A stretch of 64,000 nt of DNA from Chiloscyllium plagiosum (taxonomy: Eukaryota), in contig NC_057725.1 of NCBI RefSeq assembly GCF_004010195.1, positions 57,258,323 through 57,322,322 on the forward strand, read 5' to 3'. A program made the translations under genes and the position numbers. This document shows, in pieces, positions 9,698-63,448 of this stretch; within the stretch, counting starts at the first letter, position 1; each line of letters begins with the position of its first letter. The notes under the pieces were generated by a model. The model was not told where the DNA came from and made no database searches. It saw nothing but the letters and a program-made list of their open reading frames with translations.

Positions 9698-10611
9698 GTA
9701 AGACTGCTTTACAGTTCACACTGCACGAGGTTGTAAACACAGATCTGGCTGCTTGAGTTTGTGAAATCTTGATGCCGAACAGGAATTGCAGTTTTACGGG
9801 CATTCTGATGAATTTGACAAGGGTGCGCACATCCAGTTTGCTTCAATGTTTATACGGGGTATGGGAGTTTACAAAAGGACTATTGTGACAGTGCAGCATC
9901 CACATTCAACTCTCCTGTGGGCCTAATTGCAGCCTGGTGAAATAGGAAAGGAGAGAAACAAAGCAAGCCATTGCTGTATCCCTTGCCCTTCCAAGCGAGT
10001 GAATCATTATTGCATGCCCCACTCTCTCAGCCACAGTTGCTTGCATCACCCGAACGAGGAACTTGATCGTCTCACATTGATTCCAAAAAGATGCCTTGAA
10101 AGTCCTTCCGTGTATAGGCTTCAGCAATCTGAAACAATGAAATTTGAAATGTGTGGTGATTGTTATAATGGCTGTGCCGGTGTAATGAGTTTACCAGGGG
10201 AACGTGAATTGTTTGCACCACATTATGGCATGTTGGACGTGAGTATGGGCAGTGTTTGCTGGGACTCCAGGCTGTCTTCTCCTGCTCCTGTAGACTTTGG
10301 CAGCTTTGTGCAATATGGCTCTTTTATATGTCAATCATCTAATGTTCGCTGACTCACAACCGAGCAATGCTTACAAGAGGGCAGGAAGTATAGAATAATG
10401 AGTGACGGATATGTCAAATTTATTGCAAGGTTATAATCCTAGCTTGGGATGCAGCTGATCAGGAAGTGTAGCACCTGTCCACATACTGAGCCAGAAATAC
10501 GAGACAAGGATTTGATTTAGCTGTTGACCTATGTTTGCACGTTTCGCTTCAGCAACCAAGATAGAGGATAACAAAAATAAATAGATTTGTGCTCTGGACT
10601 ATTAGTCCTAT

Positions 10612-10833
10612 ATTCGAGAGTGTGGTGCTGGAAAAGCACAGCAGGTCAGGCAACATCCGAGGAACAGGAGAATCGACGTTTTGGGTATAAGCCCTTCATA
10701 AGCTCTTTTCTGGTGCAGTGTTTACACCGGAAATGTCGACTCCCCTGCTCCTCGGATGCTGCCTGACTGGCTGTGTGTTTCCAGAACCACACTCTCAACT
10801 CTGATCTCCAGCATCTGCAGTCCTCACTTTCTC
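10612..10833 (+). mobile_element. Short Penelope-type fold-back element, family A
   Basis: Inverted arms (~10614-10695 vs ~10725-10797), unpaired tail …cagtcctcactttctcc, TSD ctattag(t/c)cctat at 10599-10611 and 10834-10846; decayed hammerhead cores. Confidence 0.82.
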
Positions 10834-12732
10834 CTATTAGCCCTATTGTTAACGTGGAGGAATCTTTCAGAATCACAGGTCATTATCAAAGTCTCAAGAA
10901 GAGCAGACAGCACAGCAGGTTGTTAAATGAAATAGTCCTCTCGATTCCATCCATTGGAAATTAGTGGAAAGAAAATTGTTTGCAGAAAATTGAAGAAAAT
11001 TGACAGGTAGCACTGACCTGATTGTGCGATTGCAGCACCCATTGTATTCAAGATGCTGCTTGGGCGCTTTGTAAAGTTTTGGCTCGATCATCAGGGCTTA
11101 CTCATAAAGAATGAGAACTGGGATGGTTAGCAGCCCGACATTGTGCGGTCAGAGTGGGTTAACAGTTCGAGGAGAGTTGTTTACAATCTTAAGAACAATC
11201 AATACAGAGCATCAGTTATTCAATGCAGATCTTGACCTGTGTAACAAGACTACATGTTTTCATTCCTTTTTGTTTAAAATTGTGGAGATGTTTCATGAAA
11301 TGCAAAATAAAGAGTTGCATGTTACATCATTTTGCTTTGCAGTTTGAAAATCTTTAGACTTCGATACATTTCCGTCAGTGTCCTTTGAGTACATGCTACC
11401 ACTTTATTGTTATCAGATGTGACTTCAAAGACTAGAAATTTTCAGTACAGACTTGGGGACTTCCAGCTCTTCAGAATCTCAGTTCTAAAAAGAAATCACA
11501 ATTATTGTTCTCCCTGCCATTTCTCAGAATGTCAAAGCTTTGTGGTTCCAAACTGTGTTTGTGGGTGAATTCCAAAGTCAGTGGAAATTCCCCCAAGTAT
11601 GCTGCCCCTGTATTCATTAACCAGTTTCCCCTCATTTGGACTGCACTGAGTCTCACTGAATATGCACCTAACAACCATCATCGGAGTCTAAATTGCAGTT
11701 TGTTGTGCTTTCATATTTTCATCCTTTGCTGTCCCTATTGACATTTGTGTGTGCATGTCTGAGTGCGGGCTGTGTTAAGTATCCCCCGAACAAGTTTGCC
11801 TACTTTTCCAAACAAACACTTAATGCAAGAAAACATTGAAATCTGGAAATAAGGCAGAACCTTCCATCATGCAGTCTACATTCCTTGTCAGGTATGGAAG
11901 GTGCTTCCACTTGGTTGTGAGACTTCACTCGTGTATTGTCATCCTCGGTTTATTACGTATCCATGCGCTAGTAGTTGTGGTGAGGGTAGGCAGGAGGTCC
12001 TGGTGCCTACGGTTAACTCTTGGAGTCAGTGGGTCCAGTGCCATATTTAAATGGTGCCCAGACAGCAGCTCACTCACAGCGAACCAAAAGCATCACATTT
12101 GCCTGTGTTTGCCACTATCTTCCCTCACCCAACCTCGCCCCTCTCCCACCACCACCATATCCAAAGGTATGACAGACATGACAGGCGATGGCCTCTCATA
12201 AAGCGTTGCCCAACAGCAGACAGAAGTGCAGGGTTCACTTCTCCCAGCATCTAGGGAACAGGAGAATCGACGTGTGATCCAATGGCAAGGAGAGATCTGC
12301 TTTGCACTTTCTTTGCAGCTCTCCCACTTGCACCACCCAAAATCTCTGCCTCATGGCAACTCCAGATGCCATTCATTATCATCTTCACTGTGGCTCCTGA
12401 TTTTGCAGGGATCTCAATGTTACGGGGTCTGGGTCATGAAGCAACATTGTTGTCTTGTTTGCGTCACCATAGAGAGATGAACACACCTGAGAATGGTGCT
12501 CATGCAGTTAACTCATTGTCACATGGTCCTTGGAGAACCTCTAAGCCTCCTATTGTTGTGGAATTCCCAGTGAGGCCATCCATGCACTCTGTCTGAGTCT
12601 GCAACTCCCACACATTGTACCTGTCTTGCCACTATTACACTATTATAGCCACTCCCTAACACTCTCAGTATAGTCCTTTCGACCCAACCATTGACACTAC
12701 TGACCCTGCTGGTTAAGAACAATAATAGAGCA

Positions 12733-12930
12733 CCATAGAAACATAGAAAGTAGATGCGGAACTAGGTCTTACAGCTGTTTGAGCGTACTATGGCATTCAT
12801 TACTATCATCCAACCTGTTCTGCTTTTCTTCTGTGTCCTTTGATCCCTTTTGCCCCGAGTGCAATGTTGTGGCCTCAACTGCTTTCTGTGGTTAATGAAT
12901 TCCACTGGCTCAGTGTTCGCTGAGTGTCTC
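12733..12930 (-). mobile_element. Decayed CR1 3' end
   Basis: catagaaacatagaaa tail followed by CR1 3'UTR-like sequence. Confidence 0.55.
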
Positions 12931-13672
12931 TGAAACCTTTCCTGTCTGTAGATGCACCATTCAAATTCAGATACAACCTTTTAACCCTATTCTGGTTATC
13001 CTTTCTGCCCTTGGTCAGCCTCTATCCCCTGCACCCTTTACAATCCATCCTCCATGCCCACTAGATTGTCTGTCATTACATCACATCGATGACACTGCAG
13101 AAAGAGCACAATGCAGTGACCACTCACTCCAAAGTCCTGGACAATGACTACCAGGCATGGTTCTGAAGGCCCAGTACTGCTTATTTGCATAACAGGAACT
13201 TTATTCTGGTAAGCTGGCCTTCTCATGAGGATATATGACACATAAATACATGCGTTTACCCTGCCTCAACCCATCTTTAATGTTTGGAGAATTTAATTAC
13301 AAAAAAAAAGTTATCCTAACATCAGGATTCTGAATTTTGCCCATTCAAGCAGTTAAGTTCCCTCATTTGTCTTGCTTCCTGCTCCCAGGATCCACCCTTT
13401 AAAATCTTAAACACAGGGGGCACATTGTGATTTATGCCCTTGAGTAAGTAATCCAGTTAGTCCCACTCCTTTACTGTATCCCCATCAGCCCTCCAACTTC
13501 CCTTTAAATCAATTCATTCTTGGAGATCTCCTCCATTTCAGGCGGTGCCTTCCACACCATAGCACCCAGTTACATGAAAATAAAATTGGACTCACTTCCC
13601 ACACATTTGCAATTATTTGAAAAGTAACGATACCAATGAAAGTCAAATGGAAGCTCCCTTACCCTTGCAATA

Positions 13673-15291: not shown

Positions 15292-15812
15292 TCAGAAGGA
15301 AGTTGTGAAATTTGAAAGGATTCAGAAAAGATTTACAAGGCTGTTGCCAGGATTGGAAGGTTTGAGCTATCGGGAGAGGCTGAATAGGCTGGGGCTGTTT
15401 TCCCTGGAGCATCAGGGGCTGAAGGGTGACCCTCAGGTTTATAAATTCATGAGGGGCTTGGATAGGATAAATAGACAAGGTCTTTTCCCTGGAGATAGGG
15501 GAGTCCAGAACTAGAGGGCCTGGGTTTAGGGTGATAGGGGAAAGATTTAAAAGGGACCCTAAGGGGCAACTTTTTCATGCAGAGGATGGTGCATGTATGG
15601 AATGAGCTGCCAGAGGAAGTGGTGGAGGCTGGTACAATTACAACATTTAAAAGACATCTGGATGGAAAAAATGAATAGGAAGGGTTTAGACGGATTTGGG
15701 TCAAGTGCTGACAAATGGGACTAGATTAGATTAGGATATCTGGCCAGCATGGACAAGTTAGACTGAAGGGTCTGTTTCCATGCTGTACATCTCTATGTCT
15801 TTATGATTCCAT
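15292..15812 (+). mobile_element. HER1-like LINE 3' fragment
   Basis: FERIQKRFTRLLPGLEGLSYRERLNRLGLFSLE, WNELPEEVVEAG; ctctatg tail. Confidence 0.93.
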
Positions 15813-19165: not shown

Positions 19166-19402
19166 TGCAGTTTGTAGGCAGTGGTGCCAGCCATGAAACC
19201 TGCCTCTAAAGCAATAAAAAAAATCTGTGCATGAGAAGGGATCTAACTTGTTAGCTGGACTTGTGTTGAGTGAGCTGGAATGGGAGTCCTGCTTTTCTTC
19301 ACCCACAGCTGGGGTCAATTGCCTCTAGCACTAGGCCACCACAGTTAACTGAGTTCACATCACTGACTTCTTACTCTGGATTTTGAAGTCTTAATTATTA
19401 GG

Positions 19403-19530
19403 CAACCACCTGATGAAGGAGCAGTGTTCCAAAAGTTGGTGCTTCCAAATAAACCTGTTGGAGTATAACCTGATGTTGTGTGATTTTTAACTTTGCACAC
19501 CCCAGTCCAACACTGGCACCTCCAAATCAT
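19403..19530 (+). mobile_element. Penelope-type short element, family B, single arm
   Basis: cacctgatgaaggagcagtgttccaaaagttggtg…aataaacctgttgg…cacctccaaatcat; homologous to 39424-39617 and 63257-63448. Confidence 0.82.
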
Positions 19531-20081
19531 GGTGATTAGGTTAATAAAAATGAGGATTTGCTCTGTAAGTGACCTCAAACATGTCCTTCCTCTTTGTCAA
19601 TGGGATACTCAGTCTCTCATTGTCATGCCACATGCTGCTTCCTTATGCTCTGTATCTCAAAGCTGTGGATAAATAGTGGAAACAGAAATGCTTTGTCAGA
19701 TTCTACATATTAATTTGTTGATTTGCCAGACATTGAAGTAAATACTACTTTTACACTGCAATGTTTGTGCCAATAAGTGACACCCACTCCAGAAGCCAAA
19801 TGAAAATAAAACCCTGTTAATCTGCCTCCATGAAGTGACTCACTGCAGGTCTGAATGAGTGTTTTCAGACTTGGGAAAGGGACCTTTGCAGTTATTGAAG
19901 TACTCCCTGGAAAGTGCTTAGACAAAAACAGTGCCAGCCAAACTTTATACTTAGTAGTGGAAGAATCTGTAAGTAACATTCAGCGGAAACAAGCAGATTC
20001 TAAGTTAACTAATGGAGAAAAGAACAGAAACTAAATGCAAACTGAATAGAAATTTAATCATCTTGGACTCTCAGTTTGAAA

Positions 20082-20200
20082 AGCTGAAGAAGAGTTACAC
20101 CCGAAATGTTGACTTGTCCACCTCCTGACGCTGCCTGGTTTGCTGTGTTCTTCAGCCCCATGCTTGTCTACTTTGTTTTCCAGCATCCACAGCTTTTTTG
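20082..20200 (+). mobile_element. Penelope-type short element, family A-related
   Basis: ctgaagaagagttacacccgaaatgttgac…gctgcctgg…ttccagcatcc shares the core and tail motifs of family A. Confidence 0.65.
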
Positions 20201-20329
20201 GCACCATTCACAACCGTCAAGCAAGAGTAATATTCAGCAATACCAAGCTTCTAAAGGAGAGCTCTGCTCATGGGGGCATAGCTTCATGACCATGGATCAT
20301 AACCCCAAATAGAACATAGAACACAGAAA

Positions 20330-21093
20330 AGTACAGCACAGAACAGGCCCTTTGGCCCACGATGTTGTGCCAAGGATTAATCCGAATGCAAAATAAAATA
20401 ACTTAACCTATGCATCCCTCAATTCACTGCTGTCCATGTGCATGTCCTTCAGTCGCTTAAATATCCCTCATGACTCTGCTTCCACCACCACCACTGGCAA
20501 TGCATTCCATGCATTCACAACTCTCTGTGGAAAGAACCTTCCTCTGACGTCCCCTCTACCTTTCTCCTAATATCTTAAAACTATGACCCCTCGTGCCAGT
20601 CAATCCTGCCCTAGGGAAATGTCTCTGGCTATTGACTCTATCCATGCCTCTCATTATCTTGTATACCGTAATCAGGTCACCTCTCTTCCTCCTTCTCTTT
20701 AGAGAGAAAAGTCCAAGCTTAGTCAACCTCTCTTCATAAGGCAAGCCCTCCAGTCCAGGCAGCATCCAGGTAAACTTTCTTTGCACCTTCTCCAAAGCCT
20801 CTGTATCTTTCCTATAGTAGGGCAATCAGAACTGAACACAATATTCCAAGTGTGTCTCACCAGCGACTTATGGAGCTGTAGCAAAACCTCACGGCTCTTA
20901 AACTCGATCCCCCTGTTAATGAAAGCCAAAGCACCATATACTTTCTTAACAACCCTATCCACTTGGGTGGCAACTTTGAGGGATCGATGTACTTGCACAC
21001 CCAGATCCCTCTGTTCCTCCACACTGCCAAGAATCCTGTCTTTAATCCTATATTCAGCATTCGAGTTTGACCTTCCAAAATGCATCACTTCGC
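20330..21093 (-). mobile_element. CR1 LINE 3' fragment
   Basis: MHFGRSN…VEEQRDLGVQVH…; LEKVQRKFTWMLPGLEGLPYEERL; agaacatagaac tail. Confidence 0.93.
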
Positions 21094-21211
21094 AGTCTGA
21101 ACAACAAAATGATTCTCTCTCATCCTGGAATGCTGGAATTCGGTCACAATCAAAAACAATCTGAACAAGTGAATCTCAACCAATTTGTGACACAAAGAAC
21201 CTTGAAAGTTA

Positions 21212-21340
21212 AAACTGAAAGAAGTGCGGATGCTGTACATCAGAAATAAAAACAGGAATTGCCAGAAAAGCTCAGCAGGTCTGGCAGCACCTGTGGAAAG
21301 AAATCAGAGTTAAGCTTTCGGGTTGAGTGTCCCTTCCATC
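21212..21340 (-). mobile_element. Penelope-type short element, family A-related, decayed
   Basis: gcggatgctg…gaaaagctcagcaggtctggcagca…ttaagctttcggg parallels the family A antisense arm. Confidence 0.6.
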
Positions 21341-21606
21341 TTGAAAGTAACTGTTCAACTGTGACATTAACATTGTTGGTAACCCCCATAGCAACACCTG
21401 CAGAGTTCCACTATTTAACGTTCACAAACAATCTTGATACTGATCTGTCGATCTCTTTTTAAAAAGTTCACCTTTTTAGACTTGCACACAGATTAGAAAT
21501 AAAAAGTATGTATATTGTGTGACTGATCCTTCCCCTATTTAGTCATGAATGAACTCGCTTTCTATTAACTCAAAAAAGCCTGGTTAAATTGGCTCCTTTA
21601 ACAGCA

Positions 21607-21790
21607 GGAGAAAGTGAGGACTGCAGATGCTGGAGATCAGAGCTGAAAATGTGTTGCTGGAAAAGCGCAGCAGGTCAGGCAGCATCCAAGGAGCCCTTCC
21701 TGAAGAAGGGCTCATGCCCGAAACGGCGATTCTCCTGCTCCTTGGATGCTGCCTGACCTGCTGCGCTTTTCCAGCAACACATTTTCAGCT
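21607..21790 (-). mobile_element. Short Penelope-type fold-back element, family A, young
   Basis: Tail ggagaaagtgaggactgcagatgctggagatca at left, then perfect inverted arms (21640-21693 vs 21738-21791); TSD gctccttt(c)aacagca at 21592-21606 and 21788-21803. Confidence 0.88.
21697..21732 (+). ncRNA. Minimal hammerhead motif, cleavage triplet mutated
   Basis: CTGAAGA-A-GGGC tcat GCCC-GAAAC-GGC; the sister copy at 50034 has GTC here. Confidence 0.6.
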
Positions 21791-23091
21791 CCTTTCAACA
21801 GCATAAATTCATTTGAGTCTGGGAGGAAGGCATCCGCATGGGATAGCAGACATTCTTAATTTAAGATTGGTATGAGCAACCGAGGGATAGGAAAATAAAA
21901 CCAGGGAGCTAGTTCCTCCTGCCTCCACCCAAGGGCTTAACAATTTTGGGTAAACTTAACAAACTGGGAAACCTCCTCTGGGATCTGGGTGAAACAATGC
22001 TGACTGGAGCTGTCATTTGTGGTTCTCAGTGAGCTGCAACTAGTGAGCTTCATACTTTGGCTGTTAGATTGCCATTGTTCAATTTGGTATCACGTGGTCT
22101 CCATAGATAAAGTGCTCAGATAAATGTAATTCAAGATAATGAAATGGAAAATGTGTCAAAGCTTTTCAGTGTTCTGCTTCAGCCACAGGATGATGCTCTG
22201 TAATGTAGACACTATTCTGATCGTATGTTATGATAAGGGGGCCTGCTCCCATTCTCTCTGTCTTTAGGAGTCTGACAGCTGATTAACACAGAGCCCCAAC
22301 CATTCCTTTGACTTTTCTTTCCTCCTATTCTGAACGCACAGCCTGGAATTTTCTCGAGCCTTTCAGTGCACGTCCACTGTCAATCACACATGGCCCCAAG
22401 CTCTCTAGGCCTGGTTCTTTGGTTGCAGATATTATTAAGGTGGAAGCTTAGCTCAAATCAAATCAAGTTCTGTAAAGGAAGAGTCAGACATGACTGGCCC
22501 CAGAATGGAGACTATATGTGGCAACACGCTGAGAGAGAGAGAGGTTTCCTGGTTGGTGGATGCGTGGGCTCAGCACAGAACTGAATGACTTCTAAACCTT
22601 CATTCCTTACCTGTTGCTCAATGGGATTGGACATAATACACCTGATCCTGGTAGGCCTCAAATTTTAAGCATCTGCCTTAGTAATCTCAAGATCACTGTC
22701 CCAGCAGCAACTTTTCTGTCTCCTTTTCATGGCTGCCTCCTGAAGTAGTTTCTGTCATGTAAGGACCTGTCAGAAAGTATGGCTTTTAGAGAATAGGGTC
22801 AGGCTGGAACATTCGGATCAGACTGAGCTTCAAGACTGAGGAGCACTGCTGCCCCGACTCTTGTTCTCTTGCCGTCATTTGGTTCAGCATCCCTGTGGTG
22901 CTTCCTGTACTTGCACCCCACCACCACCGATCCTTCGCCCCACCCCGTCAACTTTGAATCTTTGGTTGACAACAATTATTCATCAGGGAGATGTGTTTCA
23001 CTGTCATTGTATCTTTCCAAGTTCACATCCACTCCCCCCCCCCCCCCTCAGAGGGCAGAAGAGTCCTTATGTTAACATGTCATCAGATGTC

Positions 23092-24750: not shown

Positions 24751-25204
24751 AGAGTCATACAGATGTACAGCACAGAAACAGACCCTTTGTTCCAACTCGT
24801 CCATGTTGACCAGGTATCCTAACCTAATCTAGTCCCATTTGCCAGCACTTAGCTCACATCCCTCGAAACTCTTCCTATTCATACACCCATCCAGATGCTC
24901 TTTAAATGTTGTATTTGTACCAGCCTCCACCACTTCCTCTGGCAGCTCATTCCATACACGCACCACCCTCTGTGTGAAAACGTTACCCCTTAGGTCCCTT
25001 TTAAATCTGTCCCCTCTCACCTTAACTCTATGCCCTCTTGTTTTGAACTCTCCTACCCCAGGGAAAAGACTCTGACTATTCACCCTATCCATGCCCCTCA
25101 TGATTTTACAAGCTTCTGTGAGTTCACCCTTCAGCCTTCAATGCTCCAGGAAAATGGCGCCAGTCTATTCAGCCTCTCCCTATAGCTTAAACCCTCCAAT
25201 CCTG
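24751..25204 (-). mobile_element. HER1-like LINE 3' fragment
   Basis: MRGMDRVNSQSLFPGVGEFKTRGH…RGNVFTQRVVRVWNELPEEVVEAG. Confidence 0.93.
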
Positions 25205-28248: not shown

Positions 28249-28365
28249 AGCTCTGATGAACAGTCATCTAGACCCGAAACATTAGCTTTCTCTCTCCAAG
28301 GGTGCTGCCTGACCCGCTGTGATCTCCAGTATTATTTGTTTTCATTCCAGGTTCCAGCATCGGCA
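28249..28365 (+). mobile_element. Penelope-type short element, family A-related
   Basis: agct-CTGATGA-a-cagtc atcta gaccc-GAAACATT-agct followed by gctgcctgacc…ttccagcatc. Confidence 0.68.
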
Positions 28366-29980
28366 TTGATGCTAGGCCTCCTTATCCTCTCTGCCCATCC
28401 CTGATGGTTCCCTCATGTCTCCAATGCTAACTTATGCTCCCATGTTCATCACAGGGGCTTTTTGTTTCCCCAAATGCCAACCTATGCACCCCACCTACCA
28501 CCATTGCCCTCCCTCCTCCATATAAACTCACTTACTATCTGTCATGGGCTAACTGCGGGAGCCGTGCTGACACAAAGTGAAGTCATGCTTCTTGATGATA
28601 ACACTACTTAAAAAATACACACATTGATTTTTGTTTTAGAAAGTTCATTGAAAATCCTCAACTGATCTCTTGTACAAACAAACATTTGTACCCTTATGGT
28701 TTTTGACAGCTTTGCCAGATCCAGAGGGTCTGTAATGTTTGAAATGTGATTTAGCTGTTTTGATTTACATGGTTAGAACAAGCATTGCTTGGGATTTTTT
28801 TTGTGGGGATCTGCTAATAGCACTGGGACTAGCTCTGGACTAGGGGTTTCTTTGTACAGAGGTAGGGCTCTCTAGATTAATATGGTTTTCTTTTCTTGTT
28901 TCAAACTGGATAGACTGAGCATTATCTTATGTTGAATTGTTACTGGTACTGACTGTGTCTCATTAACATGGCGTTAAGAACAGATGTTCCTTCAGAACTG
29001 TGATCCCACAGAATAACTCAATCATTCTTTTGATGTGGCTTACAGGGTGGAATGGTGAGCATTTGCACCATTAATTACTGCGACTAATGATATGTTTAAC
29101 CATCCCTTAATATTTGCAAGCATGTCTGCCGAGCAGAGAGTTGGACATCCTCTTATCAGCTGCTGTCACTGCCTCTATTTCTTTCATGTAATTAATATGA
29201 GTAGCTTGACTCTGGGTTTATGAAATAATCAAACTGTGTAAAAGAGGATCTAGAAATCATCATTCATTTCCCAGGACTACTTAATTATTGTCATCTTAAT
29301 GAAAGAAGAGTTGATCATTTTACTTCTGTTGGAGGCAGGGGGGGTTCATGGAGAAAGAACAAGTAAACCATGCTACCATGATATTTTTTGAGTGCAATTT
29401 TTCTCAACACATGCTGAGTTTGTAAATTAATACAGCCGCAAGCTTCATAAACCACTTTGTCATGGTCAGGGACCTTTAATGTGCAAGAAAACCAATGTTC
29501 AGACTTGTGCATCTGCACCCTTTTCCACACACAAAGGGCCTCTTCAATTCCCTGAGCTGAGAGCAATGTAAGTGACTGGGACAAACCTGGCTGCACCCTT
29601 CCAACAGTCTCGCAGTCGCACTCAGCACAGTGTGGCTGTGACAAGGTCTATGTTATATGAGCAGAAATGGTTGTTACCGTTTCCAAGTGCAAAACATAAA
29701 AATGCAATTTTATCAGGTTATACAGTGATTAAGCATTAAAGAAATTGAATAACTCCCCCCACAGATCTTAGCTCAGTGAACCCTTGGAAATGCTTTGAAT
29801 GGAATCATTAATCTCACGGGGTGGAAGCTTAAGCTTCAGACAGAGTAGATGTGTGGAAATTCCTAATTGTGTATTATTCTGATTGAGTGGATTCTCACAG
29901 AAAGTCAGGGGCAGCAGATTACACTTTCTCCATCTGACATATTTAAAATGGTTTCAATTTTCCTCGTGGTGCTCTCCAGT

Positions 29981-30012
<32 letters not shown>

Positions 30013-30500: not shown

Positions 30501-33309
30501 GGCTACACCTTGAAGGTATAATATTCATATACTTCATGAGAACAGCTTTCTCTCTCTCTCTCTCTCTCTCTGCCACTATAGTTTTACTGCAAGTTTGACC
30601 GAGTTCCAGTTACAGTGATGGGGCATGAGCTAATATCGTGTCAGAGAAAATGTTAAATAGAATGCTGGCCGCTAACCTTTCAGATTGTTGATAGGATGTG
30701 GAAGGACAACTGAAGAGGGGAAGATTAATGCTCTTTAGGTGATGACTTTATGTCACAACCATTGACTTTGAAATATCGATCCTCTACAGATACAACGTGT
30801 CCTGCTTACAGTGTTTCCAGCCTTTGCCATTTCAGTTCAGATTTACAGCATCCATTGAATTTTGCTTTTTAATTCATAGACTATTTTTAAAAATCATTCA
30901 CAAGGCAAAGCACTAGGAGTGAAATCATCGCCCAACCACTTTTTGTGGGGAAAGTGACAGGCAGCTGTAGTAACTCTTCCATCCATCCAAAGCGAAAGGA
31001 AAGAAAAGAAAATTTGCTGAATGCTTCTTTCACAAAGCTATAGACAACAGAATTTAAATTTGACGCTTCAAAAAGTCAGCTGCAACTCAAGGCTAGCTCA
31101 ACAGGCAATATTATGCAGTGCACTCTACTCTCCAAGCCCGATAAGTGGGCCGCACATTGTAATGATTATTCAAAGGGCCTGGGCAATCTGACTCAGTTGA
31201 GCCTATGCGCAGGTGACAGGCAGAGAAAGGGGGAGAGAGGGAGAGAGAGAGAGAGAGACTCCAGCACTGAGGCTTCTGGAACCATCCATCAGAGCCACTC
31301 ATCCACGTGGGTAAGCCGCTAAAAGGAAAACAATAGTGTTATGTAACTGGCTTCAAGTGACACAGCCTATACTCATGAACAAGGGATACATCACAGGAGG
31401 CAAGAGCTGCTTAGGCATCCATTTTGCAGATAAAGACCTTTCTGTGACTATTCAAACCACTTTGTACTTTCGAAAGGGATTTCCTTTAGCAGTGTCTGAA
31501 CACTGAATGCACAGAGGCTGAAGGACTGAGCAGAGGGACCCTATCCACCATCCCCCCCCTCCCCCCATCTACTGCACCCCCATCGCTTTATGGTCCACTT
31601 CAAAGATTAACCAGTATATGATTAGAACATCAAGAGAAATCCCTGCAAATGCTGGTGCAATGATACAGAAGGATCAGGATAAAACTGTTTGAAGCCTTCA
31701 GATAATAATAGGATCAGTGACTGCAACACTGAATTTGATGGCACCATTTAAAAATGTCTTGCGCAGAAGAAACCAGAGGAAAATAGTCCCCAGCACACCA
31801 CCACCACCACCGCCTCCCCCCCACCCCCCACAAAGATTGTATAGGTTGATGGGAATTGCATTCTGTGCCTGGTGGGGAAAATGCCAAGTTTCTCCGAGAT
31901 AGTTTATTCAGTAATGTAGAATTACGAAATACTGTTCAATCCTATCCTCGTGGGGCTGACCATGCAGTTTATTTGGCAAAGGTGAGTGGTGTGAGGTTTG
32001 GAGGTTTGCACTGCTTAGTTGTATAACCTGGTTTGGCACTGTTTCTGATTTCTGTCTCTCACTGCCTTGTTTCCACCCACCATATCTCCCTCTCTGGCGA
32101 GTTTTTTGTTGAGAGAGTGTGTGTGTGTGTGTAAGCATTTTCTCCTTGTGTGTGAGTGAATGCACTTTCTCTGTCTCTACCTTGCAATTTCTGTTCATCT
32201 AATAAAAACAGAAAATGGTTGGCATACATTGCGACTCAGTAAAGTGAGTGATGGGCTAATGTTAGCAACAGTGACATTTCTTTAGATTGCACTCTCTCAC
32301 TCTTTTATACTTTCTCCTTCTTTGCTATTGTCTTTTTCTTTGCAAAATAAGGGCTGTTTCCCTTTTTGATAATACACTGTCTTTTTTTATTATTAATTGG
32401 GAGTCAAGCTTCTCCCTTGGTCAGATCCTACACTTACTCCAAAACCCCCTCATGAAGCAACTGAGTGTAAAAACCCAGCATTGTGCGTGCAGCAGAGAGC
32501 AGTAATCCATGTCCGGCATGGCTGCTTGTTCAGCGCCTGCTTCTCAAATACTTTGTTTTTGTTTAAAGTTTGGAACCGGGCCAGTCACTGAATGGCTTCA
32601 AGTTTCACCAACACTTGCAGAGGCATCCAGGACTTAAAGCTAAAGCAAAAGAAGGCAAACAGGGGAACGAAAGCGAACATTTAGAAAACTAACAGCAGTG
32701 TGTCTGAGCACAACACTACCTCAAACCTAGAAGATGCAGCCTCTATAATTTCCTTGGGCACCCAACATTTAATTGTTCTTTGATTCTTATCCATGTGACT
32801 TATGAGATTTGTTAGGATCTATCCCAAAGTGTGGTGGTTCCCACTGTGAGGATGGTTCCTCTCGGAAGTCTAAAAACTAAACAGCACCTGTAAAACTATC
32901 GGCGCCAGGCCTCCCGATTTCTAAACTTCCCTGTCCTCGAACCAGCTTAGACCTTGCAGGCAACCGTGTGCCCTGTCTGCCAGGCACTGACTGCTTTCAA
33001 AACCACACCAGTATGCTTGCTGAGCATCGATGGATTGCTCAGGCATTCTTTCATTCTCAAACTGATGTTCTGTCTTCTTTGTAAACAAAAATAAATGAGT
33101 ACCACAATGCGACACAAGGGCTTTCAATCTCTTCGTTCGCTGCTGGGAACGTTTGGGTTCAGCACTCGGGTTTCACGGAGTGGCTCAGAATGTGAGACCC
33201 AGGGAGCTGTGCTTCAAAGTCTAATACCTCCAAGCAGGTCACGTCGTGATGGGCTGAATGGCCTCTTTCTCTCCCACCCGTGGTGAATTTCTGTGATCTC
33301 TTGCAACCC

Positions 33310-39192: not shown

Positions 39193-39423
39193 AGTACAAC
39201 AAGTGCCAGGTTTTACAGGATAAATGCTGGAAAACAAATAATGGATGGCAATCTTCCGGAAACTAGGCAGCATCATATAATGATTACAGCATTGAGGGAA
39301 GACATTTAGCATTGATGGAAGAGCAACTCCACTAGTCCCACTCCCCCACCACATCCTTGTAGCCTTGTGATGTTCCTCACTTTAGACAAGTGTCCAATTT
39401 TCTATTGAAGGTCTCAGTTGAAT

Positions 39424-39617
39424 TAAGTTAAAAATCACACAACACCAGGTTATGGTCCAACAGGTTTATTTGGAAGCACTAGCTTTCGAAGCACTGCTTC
39501 TTCATCAGGTGGCACTCCAAAAGCTAGTGCTTCCAAATAAACCTGTTGGACTGTAACCTAGTGTTGTGTGATTTTTAACTTTGTCCTCCCCAGTCCAACA
39601 TCAGCACCTCCAAATCA
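39424..39617 (+). mobile_element. Penelope-type fold-back element, family B
   Basis: Inverted arms 39425-39487 vs ~39519-39581, ~36-nt unpaired tail, approximate TSD tca(g/a)ttgaat. Confidence 0.85.
39477..39511 (-). ncRNA. Minimal type I hammerhead ribozyme motif, core intact
   Basis: Minus strand: CAC-CTGATGA-A-GAAGC agt GCTTC-GAAA-GC-TA-GTG. Stem I CAC/GTG, perfect 5-bp stem II, AGCT palindrome in place of stem III. Confidence 0.72.
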
Positions 39618-42555: not shown

Positions 42556-43343
42556 TATTCCAACGAGCCACCACACACTGCAGCACAGACGAACTTCGGA
42601 AAACAGAGGAGAACCACCTATACAATGTATTCAAGAAGAACGGATACTCAAAAAATACAGTCCGCAGATTCCTCAAGAACAAACCACGACAAGCAGACCA
42701 AACACAGCCAGAAACCCTAACCACCTTATCATACATCAAAGAAGTTTCGGAAATGACAGCCAGACTACTAAGACCCCTCGGAATCCTAGTAGCACACAAA
42801 CCCACCAACACTCTCAAACAAAAACTAACAAACTTAAAAGACCCAGTACAACCCATGGACAAAGCCAACGTTATCTACAAAATTCCATACAAGGACTACC
42901 ACAAACACCACGTAGGACAAACAGGAAGAAAGTTAGCCACCAGGATACACGAACACCAGCTAGCCACAAAAAGACATGACTCTGTCTCCCTCGTAGCCAT
43001 ACACACAGATGGAAAAAAAGCACCTTTCGACTGGGACAACACATCTATCCTGGGACATGCTAAGCAAAAACATGCCAGAGAATTCCTAGAGGCCTGGCAC
43101 TCCAACCACAATGCCATAAACAAACACATAGATCTAGATGCCATCTATCAACCCCTCAGAAAACGAACAGGAAATGACATCACCACAAACCCCAGGAACC
43201 CCATCCAGGAGAAAGATGTAAATAGAAAGGAGGACACAACAGCTTCGCTTCACTTGGAGTTCGCCACTCATGATGTTACCTAGCCAGGTAATGAAATGTC
43301 TGGATATCAAACCTACAGCTCAGCGAGCAAACCTACACCCTAA
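42556..43343 (+). mobile_element. 5'-truncated Penelope-like retroelement (RT thumb + GIY-YIG endonuclease + 3' pLTR)
   Basis: Open frame with FKKNGY, NVIYKIP…HVGQTGR…RIHEH…FDW…AREFLEAWH…IN; perfect 12-bp TSD ATTTAGCTAAGC at 42544-42555 and 43344-43355. Confidence 0.93.
43264..43303 (+). ncRNA. Decayed minimal hammerhead motif in the Penelope 3' repeat
   Basis: CCA-CTcATGA-T-GTTACCT agcc AGGTAAT-GAAAtGTC-TGG. Stems I and II are intact; the core has G5>C and a CpG-type change. Confidence 0.62.
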
Positions 43344-47617: not shown

Positions 47618-47950
47618 CGGCCAGCATGGTGGCTCAGTGGTTAGTACTGCTGCCTCACAGCACCACGGACTCGGGTTCAAATCCACTCATGATCTCCTAT
47701 ATCTGCATGCGTTTCCTCCAAGTGCTCCGGATTTCATTCCACAGTCCACAGATGTGCAAGTTAAATGGATTGGCCATGTTAAATTACCACATAGTGTCCA
47801 GGGTGGACACTAGGTGGATTAGCAGGCTAGGTAAGTTAGCCATGGGAAAGGGTTACAGGGACAGGGTAGGGGGACTGAGACTGGGTGGGATGCTCTCCGG
47901 AGGGTCAGTGAGGGCTGAAGAGCCTGCTTCTACACTGTAGAGTTTCTATG
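47618..47950 (+). mobile_element. HE1-type V-SINE, decayed
   Basis: tggctcagtggttag, gggttcaaatcc, cacagtccacagatgtgc. Confidence 0.82.
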
Positions 47951-50013: not shown

Positions 50014-50186
50014 GCAGCATCCAAGGAGCAGGAGAATCGACGTTTCGGGCGTAAGCCCTTCTTCAGGAAGGGCTTATACCTGAAATGTCGATTCTCCTGC
50101 TCCTTGGATGCTGCCTGACCTGCTGTGCTTTTCCAGCAACACATTTTTCAGCTCTGATCTCCAGCATCTGCAGTCCTCACTTTCTC
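50014..50186 (+). mobile_element. Short Penelope-type fold-back element, family A
   Basis: Inverted arms 50014-50061 vs 50067-50114, end …cagtcctcactttctcc, TSD ctagccatata(t/a)ata at 49999-50013 and 50187-50201. Confidence 0.88.
50034..50069 (-). ncRNA. Minimal type I hammerhead ribozyme motif, core intact
   Basis: Minus strand: ttc-CTGAAGA-A-GGGC ttac GCCC-GAAAC-GTC-gattc; ACGT palindrome; stem I is very short. Confidence 0.68.
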
Positions 50187-51080
50187 CTAGCCATATAAAT
50201 ACTAATGGCTACAATAACAGATCAGAATCTTGCAGCAAGTTACCCACCACCTGACTCCCCACAGAATGTCCACCGTTAACAAGGTGCACATCAAGAATGT
50301 TATAGAATACTCCCCACTTGACTAGATGAGTGTGGTTCAAACAAGAACAATAAAGCTGAATAGTCAGGAATAAGATGTCAAATTCATTAGTATTCCATCG
50401 AGCACCTTAAAACGTTTACTCTGTCTATCACTAGCACACAGCAGAGCTATACTATGTATTGCAATTCTGTTTTCCTTTGACATAACCTTCCAAATTCATG
50501 ACCTGTACCACTTAGAAGTACAAGGGCATGAAAATATCACTATGTGCAAGTTTCCCTCCAAGCCACAAACATCATTCTAACTTGGCTATCCCTTCATTGT
50601 TACAAGGTCAAAACTCTGGAGCTCTCTTCCCAGCAGCACTGTGGGTATACCTAAATCAGGTGAACTGGAGGGCAACTCACCAACATCTTTTTTAATTGCA
50701 GTAGTTACAATTGAGAAATAAATGCTACCATGTTTTTTTTTAATGTAAAGGACTGCATGAAGTACAATTGCTCGTGTTGTGTGTAAGTTGTTTTCTACTG
50801 CAGTTTGTATACATGCTGCCAATGTCAGCAGTTTCTATTGAACAACATGCGGTTAGTTGTAGACATAACTTGTGCAACAGGTTACCAACTTATGAATAAG
50901 CATTTTCAGGGTGTATTGGCTTATTACTGAGAAACACCAGTTCTGTTATAAAACCTGTCATTGTTATCAAGTCTATTTATGCAGTACAAATACAGTTGTT
51001 TTTTAATGGGAAATGCAAGCATGTTATACCTAGGTGAAGAACAGAATGGTTCCTTTCTTTTCCTACTCCTTTTTTTGAAC

Positions 51081-51582
51081 GTGAAAGGCTTCAGAAAAGA
51101 TTTACAAGGATGTTGTCAAGGTTGGAATGTTTGAGCCAAAGGGAGAGGCTGAATTGTCTAGGGCTATTTTCCCTGCAGCATCGGAGGATGAGGGGTGAAC
51201 TTGTAGAAATTTATAAAATTATGAGGGGCTTGGATAGGGTGAATAGTTAAGGTCTTTGCCCCAGAGTAGGGCGGGGGTTCCAAAACTAGACTGTCTAGGA
51301 TTAAGCTGAGAGGAAAGATTTAAAATGGATCAAAGTGTCAACTATTTCACACAGAGTGTGCTGCATGTATGAAATGAGCTGCCAGAGGAAGTGGTGGAGG
51401 CTGGTACAATTACAACATTTAAAAAACATCTGGATGGGTGTATGAATAGGAAGGGTTTAGAGGAATATGGGTCAAGTGCTGGCAAATGGGACTTGATTAG
51501 GTTGGGATATCTGGTCAGCATGGACAAGTTGGACATTCGGGTCTGTTTCCATGCTGTACATCTCCTTGATGCTATGACTATA
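51081..51582 (+). mobile_element. HER1-like LINE 3' fragment
   Basis: Collinear with 15310-15810. Confidence 0.9.
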
Positions 51583-53600: not shown

Positions 53601-53910
53601 AGTGGGTGACATGGTGGTTCAGTAGTTAGAGCTACTGCCTTGTAGTGCCAGGGACCCAGGTTTGATTCCACTCTCAGGCAACTGTTCGTGTGGAGTTTGC
53701 ACATTCTCCCCATATTTTTGTGAGGTTGGTCCAAAGACATGCAGGTTAGGTGGATTAGCCATGCTAAATTGCCCACCGTGTCCAGACTGAGTTGATTCGC
53801 CTTGGGAAATGCAGAGTTGTAGGGCAGGAGGGTGGTTCTGGGTGGGATGTTCCTGAGAGGGTCAGTGTGGACGTGATGGGCCGAATGGCTTGCTTCCACA
53901 CTGTAGAGAT
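53601..53910 (+). mobile_element. HE1-type V-SINE, decayed
   Basis: tggttcagtagttag, ggtttgattcc, gtgtggagtttgcacattctcc. Confidence 0.85.
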
Positions 53911-54049
53911 TTGCTTCTAACCTTTATCTCCTAGAGAATAGCAGGCAATGTTACTTTCGTGTATTCTACTCTCCACATTTTAAGACCAGATGGCTTCCCC
54001 CACATTCCAGACAAGAGAGATGGTAACCAGTGTGCATTACCACTGGAAC

Positions 54050-56410: not shown

Positions 56411-56416
56411 TTCCAT

Positions 56417-56745
56417 TGGGCGATACAGTGACTCAGTGGTTAGCACTGCTGCCTCACAGTACTAGGGATCCAGATTCGATTACAGTCTTGGGTGACCTGT
56501 TTGGGTGGAGTTTGCACAAACCCCAGTGTCTGTGTGGGTTTCCTCTGGGTGGTCTGGTTTCCTTCCACAATCCAAAAATGTGCAGGTTAGGTGAATTGGC
56601 CACATTAAGTTGCGCATAGTCTCCAAGGATGTGTAAGCTGGGTGCCTTATTCATGGGGAATGGGTCTGGGTGGGATACTCTTCAAAGGTTCAGTGTGAAC
56701 GTGTTAGGCCAAATGGCTGTTTCCACACTGTAGGAATACTATGAA
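56417..56745 (+). mobile_element. HE1-type V-SINE
   Basis: tgactcagtggttagcactgctgcctcac, V-domain, gtttccacactgtagg end. Confidence 0.87.
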
Positions 56746-58630: not shown

Positions 58631-60477
58631 ATATTTCTGAGCAGGAAATATCACATTTGAATAGGCAAAAATATCTTTGGAAGGAGTGGAACAACAGAGC
58701 AGTTTGGGAACAAACAAATGCGGCAGTTGAGACAACTGCCAGGTTATTCTTCCAGCTGTGTTTCATACATACTCACAAAATGAACTGTCACATATTGCTC
58801 CAGGGAAGTGCACTCTAACACCTTGCTGTGATTCAGGTTGCTGGGGCTCTGTCAGTGATGCCCAACGAAAAATCAAAGTGTTCCCTATTCCATAAGTGTA
58901 ATCCTCTCTGCATCCACAGGAAGCTGGCATTTAGAATTGCCATTCAGAATTCATCGTTCATGACTAATTGTCAAGTCTCACTGTGAACAGAATGGTGTCT
59001 CTGAAAGATGTGAGTCCTCACTGTAAACAAATATGACACATGGTCTCAGTCTGAAATGTAACGTCTGCTTGCTTTCTGCAACCTCTTGCCATGTGTGGAA
59101 CCTTTCGGTGAGTTGAAGGCTGATGTTGTGAGGTGTTAAAATGTGACTCTGTGTCCTCAGTGACTACTTTACTCGCAAGCGTTGGGAATGATGTCATGTT
59201 CCCTTTGGACTAACATTGTTTGTCAAACGTGTCTTGAAACCCAATCTCAGAAGATATCACCGGCTGGCACCTACTAAGGTGACTGTAAGGCAACTACTAA
59301 AGCAATATTTAGTGATGGACTATTTGTTGCTTGGCACCTCAAAGGAGTAGCTGACATCCTAGGCCCTTTAAAAACTACCAGAGAGAGGATACGCCTGCTT
59401 TTTGGTTAGATTTTAGCTTAATTCATGATTTGAAAGAACGCTATTTAAATTTTGTATGTCAACTAAACTCCCAAAACCTTTATCTTTTCAGCCTGGTTTG
59501 CATTTGAGCTTTCACTTTATAGGTCTGCGGAGGTAATGCACTGAACCATAGTATCTGCATTTTCATCACTGACTGACTTGTGAGAAAGCAATTTCACTAT
59601 GGTACCCTTCCTGCAACCTGACATTTTGGCCAATGCACACTCATACCACTGTGAAGTCACTACATCACGATAAAGAGAATGGATATGTCCATGTCTGACG
59701 ATTTCATGATATAACCTTACCACTAATGTCCTTAGGTGCTAGTGGGGGATGTCATGCAGTGAGGTATGCCCTAGAAAGGAAGCTAATCATAGTTACAAGT
59801 GTAACAGCCCATGTCATCTGAATGAATTATGTATTTTTGGAAGGCTCAACAAAACTCAGGGATGAGTTCAGAAATGCATACAGGTGCTGCCAAGATCATC
59901 AGCAGAAAATGCTGCTACCTTCAGGTCCTTGTGACATTCCCTTTACTTCCTCCCTTTTGCTAACTGGTTACATCAGCCGTAAAACACTCCCAAATCTTCT
60001 CCCATCCAAATCCTGAGTGGAGGGAGAAAACTGCAAATGGTTGTGCTGTTTACTTCAAGATGGGTGGCCAATCTCCATGCCATAACCTCAGAGGCTGACA
60101 CAGTAACATCATATTACTAACTACTGTCACCACACCTATTTTACGTTTGCATGGGGGGGTGGGGAAAGAGGGCAGCGCAGGTGGAGACTGATTTTCAGAC
60201 AGAAAGTCCAAATCTTAAAAATCTCGAATGGCTAGGAGACTGTCCTTTCACCTCTCAGTCTGAGCAACTGAGAGATTTAACTTGTGCTCCAATAGGCTTT
60301 GGATGGATGGGTTAATTTTCTTCCATAACTGTTCTTAAAGTATGAATACATCTTTAAGAAGCAAACTTGTTTCTTTTATTTTTATAATAATGACTGAAAT
60401 GCTGCAAAAATTTAGTAACTGGTGTGCTTTTTAATGATACTCACTTGTTCTTCAAGTGTTCTTCAACTGTGCCTTCG

Positions 60478-60795
60478 TGGATGGCACAGTGGCTCAACGG
60501 TTAGCACTGCTGCCTCATCTTTGAGCCAGGAGCCTGGGTTCAATTCTAGCCTCGGGTGACTGTCTGTGTACAGTTTGCACATTCCACATGGGTTTCCTCT
60601 CACAGTCCACAGATGTGCAGGTTAGGTACATTGGCCATGCTAAATTGCCCCATCATGTCCAGGCTAGGTAGATTAGACATGGGAAATGTAGGGTACAGGG
60701 ATTGGCTGGGGTCTGGGGGGAATGCTCTTTGGTGGGTTGCTGCAGCCTCGATGGGCTGAATGGCTTCTTTCGCACTTTAGGGATTCTATGATTCT
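60478..60795 (+). mobile_element. HE1-type V-SINE
   Basis: tggctcaacggttagc, gggttcaattct, cacagtccacagatgtgcaggttagg, gggattctatgattct tail. Confidence 0.87.
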
Positions 60796-61834: not shown

Positions 61835-62690
61835 TGTAACCGCAGAAATAAATTAATTGGCGAGAGAGAGAGAGAGAGAGAGAGAGGAACCTGGAATGTC
61901 ACACCTGATGGTATCAAGGAAGCTTCAAAAGAAAATAAAAGCACAACTAAACTAATCTTTTATGAGTATGTTAGACTGTGAACATGATTGAGCAATCTGG
62001 GCAAGAGGAATGTTTGCGTTTTGCCATTGCAAGAATGTACAAGGACAGGGGTTAAAAGCCAGTTTTGACACTGATTTATATGTGCTAGTGGATTAAAGTG
62101 AGCCAGACTGCTGACTTTCCCATGTATTAGCCTGGATCTGAGTGCTAGTATGCAATGGAAGTCAAGGGAAAAAAGCATTCACTCGTCACCACTCGATCAC
62201 TCTTGTTCCGAGTGCTGGTCTCCAAGCAAAGTGAAAAGAAATAAGGACTCTCTCACTCTCTGCTGGAAGAAAGGTAGCAAACCAGTCAGAAGGGATTAGA
62301 CCAAAAGTATTTCAGCTAAACTGCAAAGCTAAAAGTCTCAAACCGACTGCTCAATTATCAATGTTTCACTTCACAAATGAAGCATAGACTGATCTGTATA
62401 TGTTATAACTTTGATCTTTTATTAGATTCACCCTTTAATGTATAAACTGTGTGCTGTGTTGGTATCTCTTTTTGGGTTTAGTAAGTAATAAACTCACTCT
62501 TCAGTTAACTCAAGAAAGCATGGTTAAATGGTGCAATTTTAAAAGGGAAATTAATTTGATCAGTTAAAAAGGCATCTAAAAAGAGGGCATCATTTTGAAT
62601 TAACCTTGTTACAAACAACCAAGAGAACAGGTTTAGTAAAGAAGGGGAACCAGTTTTAACTTCCTCACTTGGGATAGTTTGGGGGTACCC
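61835..62690 (+). mobile_element. LTR-like element (boundaries uncertain)
   Basis: Begins tgtaac near a purine tract; aataaa at ~62487; the distal part is homologous to 21540-21942. Confidence 0.4.
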
Positions 62691-62751
62691 CTGTCTTAAA
62701 CCATATTAAATTGGGGAACTTTGCCAAGAATTTGGTCATGAATCCTACAAT

Positions 62752-63075
62752 CCCCATAGCATAAAAAGAGGCCATTTGACCCACCAAGTTTGCAACAACC
62801 CTGCAAAGAGCATCGTACCTAAACCTAGTCCCCTACCTTATTTCCATAGCCCTGTATTTCCCATGGCTAATCCACCTAGCCTGCACACTATGGGCAATTT
62901 AGCATGACCAATCCAATTGACCTGCATATCTTTGGACCAGAGCACCCAGAGGAAACCCACGCAGACGCAGGGAGAGCATGGAAGCTCCATACATACGGTC
63001 ACCCAAAGCTGGAATCGAACCCAGATCCCAGGTGCTGTGAGGCAGCAGTGCTAATCATTGAACCACCATTCCATA
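62752..63075 (-). mobile_element. HE1-type V-SINE
   Basis: ggaatcgaaccc, gcacccagaggaaacccacgcagac, gggcaatttagcatg. Confidence 0.88.
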
Positions 63076-63256
63076 TAGGCTATGTAAATGCAGCTCTTTC
63101 TTTCCTCTTGAATAAGCAACTAACCTAACTGGGTGTCTGGGTGCACTCTTGTCTTTGAGTCAGTAGGTCTCAGCTTCTAGCTCCACATTTTGGCAAATAA
63201 CACAGGTTGATATGCCAGTGTAGTACCAAGGTTGTGTGCTGCACTTTGTTAAGTGC

Positions 63257-63448
63257 CATGATGTAGAGGTGCCAGTGTTGGACAAAGTTAATAGTCACAT
63301 GACACTAGGTTATAGTCTAACAGGTTTATTGGAAATCACAAGCTTTCATCACAGCCTCTTCACCTGATGAAGGGGCAGCTGTCTGAAAGCTTGTGATTTC
63401 TAATAAACCCGTTGGACTACAACCTGGCGTCATGTGACTTCTGACTTT
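63257..63448 (-). mobile_element. Penelope-type fold-back element, family B variant
   Basis: Tail at left (catgatgtagaggtgccagtgttggac), inverted arms ~63284-63348 vs ~63384-63448; inserted in a Deu SINE; taagtg on both flanks. Confidence 0.8.
63360..63396 (+). ncRNA. Minimal hammerhead motif, core intact, stem II weakened
   Basis: TCAC-CTGATGA-A-ggggcagctgtct-GAAA-GC-TT-GTGA; stem I is 4 bp; AAGCTT palindrome. Confidence 0.55.

Follow-up and report, generated by a model that had tools for sequence, protein, structure and literature searches.

Minimal hammerhead ribozymes (min-HHRs) have been documented in the Penelope-like elements (PLEs) of Metazoa (Cervera and De la Pena 2014, PMC4209133). 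In the sections of that survey used for comparison here, most min-HHRs are solo copies, which the authors call 'probably related to truncated PLEs', and sharks are not named. PLE insertions have a 'typical Penelope structure', with an inverted pseudo-LTR (pLTR), a junction palindrome, an optional 31 bp tail and an 8-10 bp TSD (Arkhipova 2013, PMC3846280; also Craig 2021, PMC8557442). For PAc, a Poseidon element of Anolis, two internal RT start sites that bound the tail have been identified in vitro and extension of both strands shown (Frangieh 2024, PMC11167929); inverted products and poly(A) are not treated in the main text of that paper. The non-LTR retrozymes (Cervera 2020, PMC7229834; Li 2026, 10.64898/2026.07.22.740005) are short, non-coding, PLE-derived or PLE-dependent and carry type I hammerheads.

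The window analysed here, 64,000 nucleotides of the Chiloscyllium plagiosum genome, contains short elements that resemble all of these. As in the min-HHR survey (PMC4209133), their motifs have a type I core, an extra nucleotide between 9 and 10.1, G10.1-C11.1 and a palindromic 15.2-16.2 without loop 3, and there are several families per genome with mostly solo copies. Stem I is, however, shorter (2-4 bp) and the density is far higher, with ~1 strict match per 21 kb in this one window; genome-wide totals, obtained by different methods, are ~9,000 for Xenopus and ~4,000 for the coelacanth. With endonuclease-positive PLE insertions (PMC3846280, PMC8557442; Schostak 2008, PMC2377424), the elements share a head-to-head inverted pLTR, a junction palindrome, a 30-40 bp tail on one end, a TSD and 5′ truncation, but they retain only the last 85-130 nt, without an ORF, their TSDs are somewhat longer, and their 5′ ends, like their junctions, cluster along the front edge of the hammerhead. 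PAc RT, whose activity was measured, starts 111-118 nt into the ORF, with the cut site at 26 (PMC11167929), a spacing similar to that of the long ends described here, where the RT starts are putative. Retrozymes differ in being tandem repeats that give rise to circles, with canonical hammerheads in Cervera 2020 (PMC7229834), whereas the elements in the window lie scattered, each a single arm or an inverted pair, and have tails and TSDs.

Layout and abundance of the elements

All nine elements listed in the preliminary description were located at their places. They are 110-225 bp long, occupy ~2.3% of the window and are listed here with two further, core-less remnants.

10612..10835, + strand: family A palindrome whose left, inverted arm is the short one; the long arm carries the tail and a decayed core (10710); TSD 10599-10611 / 10834-10846 (13 bp, p=0.0012)
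12245..12273, - strand: family A remnant, 29 bp, without core (E 0.0012)
19403..19530, + strand: single arm of family B1, with a tail; it begins 7 nt ahead of its core (19410; G12>A, H17>G); 6 bp TSD without significance (p=0.16), termini agreeing with read loose ends
20084..20200, + strand: A-related single arm; starts at the core, 5′ strand of stem I absent; TSD not found
21212..21339, - strand: single arm of another A-related family; 5′ end within the core; TSD 21201-21217 / 21340-21353 (p=0.0016)
21606..21790, + strand: family A palindrome; the short arm has the core at 21700 (U16.1>G), the long inverted arm has the tail and has lost ~25 bp; TSD 21592-21606 / 21788-21803 (p=0.0002)
28249..28366, + strand: single arm from the third of the A-related families; core at 28253, stem I of 4 bp, a stem II pair broken; TSD not found
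30783..30853, + strand: old A-related remnant without core (E 8e-5; best match in a reversed-window control, E 0.4)
39425..39615, - strand: family B1 palindrome; the short arm holds an intact motif (core at 39508), the other arm has the tail and no core; TSD 39414-39423 / 39615-39624 (p=0.025)
50014..50188, - strand: family A palindrome; a very short arm holds an intact motif (core at 50066, GUC), the other arm has the tail and no core; TSD 49999-50013 / 50187-50201 (p=0.0002)
63258..63449, + strand: family B2 palindrome; the short arm holds the core at 63364, with a weak stem II, and the other arm has the tail and no core; 6 bp TSD without significance (p=0.16)

The elements previously grouped as 'A and relatives' do not form one family; those at 20082, 21212 and 28249 are no more than 73-78% similar to family A, and this only along part of each element, and at least four families are present. 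Family B consists of two subfamilies (B1 and B2). The element at 20084 occupies the same place in organism B. TSDs are significant for five of the nine elements (10-17 bp), weak for two and absent from two.

Five of the nine are head-to-head palindromes, a feature absent from the preliminary description. One arm is ~35 nt longer in four of these five, the extra length corresponding to the Penelope 'tail', and in four of five the tail is on the arm that lacks the core. The arms meet at microhomologies of 1-4 nt at the front edge of the core, with four junction types among the five palindromes; the junction and polarity are identical at 21607 and 50014. Arms within a palindrome carry common subfamily letters and match within, not across, elements. 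The 5′ starts of the nine elements fall from -10 to +5 nt relative to the minimal hammerhead core, and the 3′ ends in families A and B fall into two fixed classes ~35 nt apart; counted from the cleavage site, one is at ~+55 to +63 nt and the other at ~+89 to +99 nt. No element end coincides with the cleavage site itself, and the window has no tandem arrays of hammerhead-bearing units.

Read depth, a rough guide, suggests ~10^5 copies for each main family, in agreement with the very large genomic population anticipated from the window. The tail end of family A has mixed flanks in 1796 and in 1095 contigs (agreement 0.33-0.34), and so have the B tail end (919 contigs) and the position just before the A core (968 contigs). 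This was seen in run X1 and again in X12, with contig counts overweighting unique flanks. Short ends of family B are at 19489-19495, and RNA of the families is present on both strands. Joints of B ends to A ends that resemble nested targeting are probably contigs spanning unique DNA between two repeats and were set aside.

Hammerhead motifs and the coding Penelope

A strict minimal-hammerhead descriptor has three matches in the window (50066-, 39508- and 63364+), where 20 dinucleotide shuffles averaged 0.15. If one core mismatch is allowed, there are six, versus 1.35 in shuffles: the strict three, the motif at 43267 described below and two probable chance matches. Only three of ten motifs pass the strict descriptor, a correction to the recognisable hammerhead claimed for most of the elements, and most of the others are one or two changes away. 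The defects are U16.1>G at 21607, G12>A with H17>G at 19403, G5>C at 43267, broken stems at 28249 and 20082, and damaged or cut cores at 10612 and 21212. Read majorities restore the motif at 21726, where T makes up ~98% of the read depth, and at 21313, where the consensus of loose ends gives an intact core in the family of the 21212 element.

Stems I and II covary across families, in support of the preliminary description. Anchored pairs in stems I, II and 15.2-16.2 are canonical in 63 of 72 cells over ten motifs (shuffled mean 41.9, maximum 55 in 10,000), and in 43 of 49 for the seven less related motifs (shuffled mean 27.3, maximum 37), although this statistic is not a clean probability because the anchors were set by hand and the copies are related. 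Covariation is mainly between families, with one compensatory pair within B1. An extra nucleotide follows A9 in all motifs, the first stem II pair is G-C or G-U in eight of ten, and the loop-less palindromic stem III is ACGU in family A and AGCU in family B and 21212, all consistent with the minimal type I hammerhead with palindromic stem III initially described. A search of Rfam returned no hammerhead family, only sub-threshold matches to miRNA precursors, four of the palindromes among them.

In the palindromes at 50014, 39424 and 63257, a hammerhead-compatible fold is predicted to lie 25-37 kcal/mol above the MFE, while at 21607 it is predicted to be only 3 kcal/mol away. That three palindromes are predicted to bury the ribozyme, together with the four types of centre, argues against self-propagation. 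RNAalifold gave a conserved 7 bp helix downstream of the hammerhead in A-type families; with almost no compensatory change (one of 14 pairs, and one of 11 in B), this helix is unproven.

The third version of the motif, reported for a coding Penelope, is present at 43267.

42556..43343, + strand: 5′-truncated Poseidon-type Penelope; C-terminal part of the ORF (endonuclease region) and pseudo-LTR
43264..43303, + strand: hammerhead in the Penelope pseudo-LTR; core overlapping the last codons, stop codon in loop II, G5>C

The ORF fragment matches the Chiloscyllium punctatum RT protein P0001 at 58%, and homology to RT-bearing proteins, one with a weak GIY-YIG match, supports a parent ORF with PLE RT and GIY-YIG for the 43267 motif only. 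A perfect 12 bp TSD, read by eye, surrounds the insertion (42544-42555 / 43344-43355). Pfam returned nothing for five ORFs of the window at E 0.001; when the limit was relaxed to E 1, the Penelope ORF gave no more than two sub-threshold matches, both irrelevant. Viral contigs (0 matches) and metagenome contigs contained no relatives of family A or B and no parent ORF for either; 119 metagenome loci with a 19-letter pattern had neither an upstream hammerhead nor likeness beyond ~38 bp and were dropped as chance.

Origin of the elements

The elements are probably ORF-less, dead-on-arrival insertions of the pseudo-LTR ends of several Penelope-like families, made by the RT and GIY-YIG endonuclease of the parents. 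They have the published PLE insertion anatomy minus the ORF and, therefore, are neither a DNA MITE nor a tandem retrozyme; this anatomy, and the same type of motif in the pLTR of the coding Penelope, support the Penelope-type origin that had been proposed. Of the two forms in which it was offered, 'extremely truncated PLE insertions' fits, whereas a retrozyme-like retro-MITE fits poorly with elements that have no tandem units in the window, no end at the cleavage site, four types of palindrome centre with arms matching inside each element and, in three intact palindromes, a ribozyme predicted to be buried. Stubs of this kind are already described in the literature and the catch alone is therefore ordinary. 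Its value is in scale and geometry, as hundreds of thousands of near-minimal insertion products record the start and stop points of Penelope RT, and the Penelope transposition cycle is still unresolved (PMC8557442, PMC11167929).

In such an insertion, the endonuclease would cut both strands with a stagger and RT would start internally at one of two sites, copying only 85-130 nt. Why RT stops is less certain, the best candidate, to which we give somewhat under even confidence, being a template RNA with its start immediately before the hammerhead. The transcription start in D. virilis is 46 nt ahead of an intron of 75 nt whose end is at helix I, and the template RNA therefore need not begin at the core. 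A single priming event would yield a single arm, and each palindrome would be built anew at its insertion, either by priming on both strands with microhomology joining or by fold-back and then trimming. As the tail is on the core-less arm in four of the five palindromes, simple fold-back of a target-primed cDNA cannot yield them, and twin priming may be the remedy. The hammerhead would be inherited cargo that does not set the ends of the stubs; any activity it has would be that of a dimer within the parent RNA, with help from protein. Counting against this explanation, the viral and metagenome contigs gave no RT or endonuclease ORF for family A or B, 21607 and 50014 have their junction and polarity in common, as for a propagating palindrome, and a significant TSD is missing from four of the nine elements.

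It is unlikely, but worth weighing, that some stubs, single-arm or palindromic, are non-autonomous masters, SINE- or MITE-like, transcribed and recopied in trans by Penelope proteins. The very high copy number, the sharp ends, the identical junction of 21607 and 50014 and the family RNA on both strands would all agree with masters, and there are precedents, as pLTR sequence alone is enough for trans mobilisation in Adineta (PMC3846280) and putative non-autonomous PLE derivatives are known in Chlamydomonas (PMC8557442). However, masters would not be expected to show four junction types in five palindromes, with arms that agree within but not between elements; PAc requires RNA that reaches 172 nt into the ORF, past the RT start sites, which a stub ending at the tail lacks; and family B RNA is polyadenylated ahead of both ends, as described below. 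Much less probable is that the elements are monomers of non-LTR retrozymes, whose unit RNA is freed by ribozyme cleavage, circularises and is reverse transcribed. Known retrozymes derive from PLE pLTRs, have a type I hammerhead, occur as monomers and are found in the one chondrichthyan sampled, but the window has no tandem units and no end at a cleavage site, its motifs are minimal rather than canonical, the palindromes are predicted to bury the fold, and tails and inverted arms are features of PLE insertions. That the palindromes are DNA-transposon MITEs whose TIRs resemble hammerheads by chance is highly improbable, and this possibility, raised in the preliminary description, is largely refuted: five elements are indeed long inverted repeats with flanking TSDs, but their arms are unequal, ending at different positions, so that each element has two ends of unlike sequence, the TSDs range from 10 to 17 bp, a single arm can also have a TSD (21212), the stems covary across families and the same type of motif is present in the coding Penelope pLTR.

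Polyadenylation within family B

Family B has a polyadenylation signal, present in all five B arms and represented by the single-arm element.

19448..19453, + strand: family B poly(A) signal (AATAAA) with a GU-rich tract behind it

In one poly(A) library (run X21), 905 RNA reads are polyadenylated 13-15 nt behind this AATAAA, inside both element ends; 420 of them have their poly(A) loose end behind 19462 and 485 behind 19468, and the reads may come from any copy of the family and not uniquely from 19403. RNA ends do not accumulate elsewhere in this library, which is of a type that would not show ribozyme cleavage ends. The 20 nt downstream of the poly(A) ends contain 2-4 A. Family B thus acts as a polyadenylation site, which is new here, and shark transcripts may gain many 3′ ends and long hairpins from it. 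A poly(A) site inside both termini also offers an inexpensive way to tell which copy of the repeat serves as template, and its position would fit copying from the uncut 5′ repeat of a parent mRNA ('strong-stop').

Tentatively, the pseudo-LTR might then be organised as a retroviral-like U3-R-U5, with the mRNA starting just before the hammerhead and polyadenylated ~30 nt after the cut, so that both RT start sites would survive only in the 5′ copy. The stubs would be integrated 'strong-stop' cDNAs, full-length copies would arise by read-through or a repeat jump and palindromes by twin priming of an RT dimer, and ~10^5 B copies would scatter working poly(A) sites, each behind a latent ribozyme. 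A further 418 family B RNA reads extend upstream of 19403, partly into common sequence (agreement 0.65), and many B copies or transcripts are therefore longer than the stub in the window.

Penelope-type stubs and their hammerhead motifs

The window is animal DNA rich in repeats, and all nine small elements reported in the preliminary description are present in it, together occupying 1,460 of the 64,000 bases. They are named here by their start positions, an arm being one copy of an element.

Elements and coding fragment
10612, 21607, 50014: family A, head-to-head palindromes
39424, 63257: family B, head-to-head palindromes
19403: family B, single arm
20082, 21212, 28249: families related to A, single arms
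42556-43283: coding Penelope fragment, with a hammerhead at 43267

Among 882 candidates, 11 matched the ORF fragment at 42556-43283; the top match, an RT protein of Chiloscyllium punctatum (P0001), is 58% identical across 243 residues, which makes a shark the most likely host. Its homologues carry RT, with a weak GIY-YIG match in one, and the fragment, which we take to be Poseidon-type from the motifs of that clade, has by eye a perfect target-site duplication (TSD) of 12 bp. At 43264-43303 the last codons of the ORF overlap the hammerhead core, with the stop codon within loop II; the C-terminus of P0001, TEDVT, is compatible with an intact core there.

A strict hammerhead descriptor gave three matches in the window versus 0.15 in 20 shuffles. 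Stem letters differ from family to family, the stem III palindrome alternating between ACGU and AGCU, and with hand-set anchors 63 of 72 cells hold canonical stem pairs versus 41.9 in shuffles, so that covariation across copies, whose absence the preliminary description had named as evidence against its reading, is present. Changes that should disable the motif occur in seven of the ten motifs, as expected of copies decaying neutrally. Where visible in reads, majorities restore the motif: T accounts for ~98% of read depth at 21726, and an intact core lies behind 21313.

Solo minimal hammerheads have been described as probable relatives of truncated Penelope-like elements (Cervera 2014, PMC4209133), and assignment of the nine elements to Penelope-type stubs, short ORF-less insertions, is well supported. 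These stubs are real, ordinary in kind and numerous.

A 7 bp helix is also kept in the A-type families despite other divergence; it closes downstream of the hammerhead, at a distance of ~55 nt. Compensatory change in it is nearly nil, and it is possibly an RT-binding structure.

Approximate positions of the 7 bp helix
50108-50172
21225-21290
28305-28362
20127-20188

Population size

Four runs were aligned to 19300-22000, a region with four of the nine elements, and abundance was estimated by dividing the summed depth of contigs by the median depth of unique bins, a ratio that gives an order of magnitude, not a copy number. On this scale family A is at 1-5 x 10^5 (a palindrome may count twice), family B at ~10^5, the 21212 family at 4 x 10^4 and the 20082 family at ~10^3, and the very large population proposed earlier is supported, roughly, at order 10^5 for A and B. 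Mixed flanks accumulate at the A and B tail ends (the tail being an extra ~35 nt on long arms) and immediately upstream of the A core, with ~900-1,900 contigs per site, in two organisms, and an agreement of 0.33-0.35 among the best-supported positions listed; contig counts give excess weight to unique flanks. Contigs at the front of the A core have CCTCA upstream of the window's TTC, which places the start ~8 nt before the core in many independent copies. The 20082 insertion has an identical location in organism B, as probably do those of 19403 and 21607, which fewer than 31 letters bridge; no empty insertion site was seen in the runs over 19300-22000.

Two other repeat families are dispersed in the window. 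One, of ~300 bp with tRNA-like head motifs and about nine copies, is presumably a tRNA-derived SINE; the other is LINE-like and is taken by us to be CR1, its depth ratios over 20574-21119 being 1-6 x 10^4.

Other dispersed repeats
6055-6350, 7950-8290, 33466-33850, 46457-46760, 47619-47945, 53604-53911, 56418-56729, 60474-60776, 62850-63073: ~300 bp repeat
3092-3297, 7135-7443, 15295-15806, 20310-21170, 24753-25154, 51078-51580: LINE-like fragments

Element ends and palindromes

Long arms end 89-99 nt past the predicted cleavage site, or at 80 nt in 63257, a copy with a 10 nt deletion; the single arm of 28249 ends at 83 nt. Short arms end at 55-63 nt, or 25 in 50014. In all nine elements, a set picked for carrying the motif, the 5′-end or centre, placed by eye, lies between 10 nt before the core and 5 nt into it. 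Compared with 5,000 random intervals, five of the nine elements have significant TSDs (10-17 bp), 19403 and 63257 have a 6 bp TSD only (p 0.16), and 20082 and 28249 have none.

Subfamily letters are common to both arms of one palindrome and absent from other elements, and the five palindromes have four junction types, joined at 1-4 nt microhomologies, with one junction common to 21607 and 50014. Together these exclude a single master palindrome; several masters, or arm conversion, would be compatible with both. In four of the five, a small sample that makes the pattern less than firm, the tail is on the arm without the core. As fold-back of one target-primed cDNA cannot pass its own start, the palindromes would have arisen by priming on both strands, or by fold-back and then trimming.

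The hammerhead-compatible fold is predicted to lie 30 (50014), 25 (39424) and 37 kcal/mol (63257) above the MFE, and just 3 kcal/mol above it in 21607, a copy without U16.1. In 21607 the inverted arm (21606-21699) has lost ~25 bp, including the sequence complementary to stem II and the cleavage site. The motif is thereby left at the long hairpin's tip, and what remains of the arms is 54/54 identical. At 39488-39500, one base pair of stem II differs between elements: the short arm of 39424 has A-U, 19403 has G-C, and the C is retained in the long arm of 39424. The two arms of 39424 may come from different RNAs, or the difference may reflect hairpin repair.

A family B poly(A) site and the template

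AATAAA and a GU-rich tract are present in all five B arms, AATAAA being 10 nt past the cleavage site in 19403. In X21, a single-cell poly(A) run (one library, ~2% of it read, with reads from any family copy), A-runs follow 19462 (420) and 19468 (485) out of 7,223 aligned reads. First mates there are mostly minus strand (938 vs 262). The template at this place lacks A-rich sequence. A further 418 reads extend upstream of 19403 into partly shared sequence, indicating that longer B copies are transcribed. As the two element ends lie ~25 and 63 nt beyond the site, polyadenylated 3′-ends cannot template stubs, and the template must be either RNA that reads through the site or the mRNA's 5′-repeat (putative strong-stop copying).

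In PAc, an Anolis Poseidon element, RT initiates internally at two sites and both strands are extended (Frangieh 2024, PMC11167929). Given these data, the simplest account would be that the pseudo-LTR (pLTR) of a parent RNA is copied by target priming, and that copying ends at or near the start of that RNA; a stop at an RNA start is put forward tentatively, and twin priming would be a further, proposed step. Inverted pLTRs, junction palindromes, tails and TSDs have been described (Arkhipova 2013, PMC3846280; Craig 2021, PMC8557442; Schostak 2008, PMC2377424), as has a Penelope-like expansion in a whale shark preprint, and related literature exists (Li 2026, 10.64898/2026.07.22.740005; Cervera 2020, PMC7229834; PMC6765202; PMC8969392). 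Among papers outside subscription on shark Penelope hammerheads, pLTR polyadenylation, palindromic or twin-priming products and strong-stop copying, surveyed mostly by title and abstract opening, none was seen to describe these shark families, a B poly(A) site or a strong-stop model; the families may already be in supplementary family lists, Repbase or Dfam entries. No parent of family A or B was found among viral and metagenome contigs. The stubs offer one testable mechanistic lead. ATGG comes after two B long arms (19527-19534, 63256-63262), either by chance or as a possible parental start codon located at the tail end.
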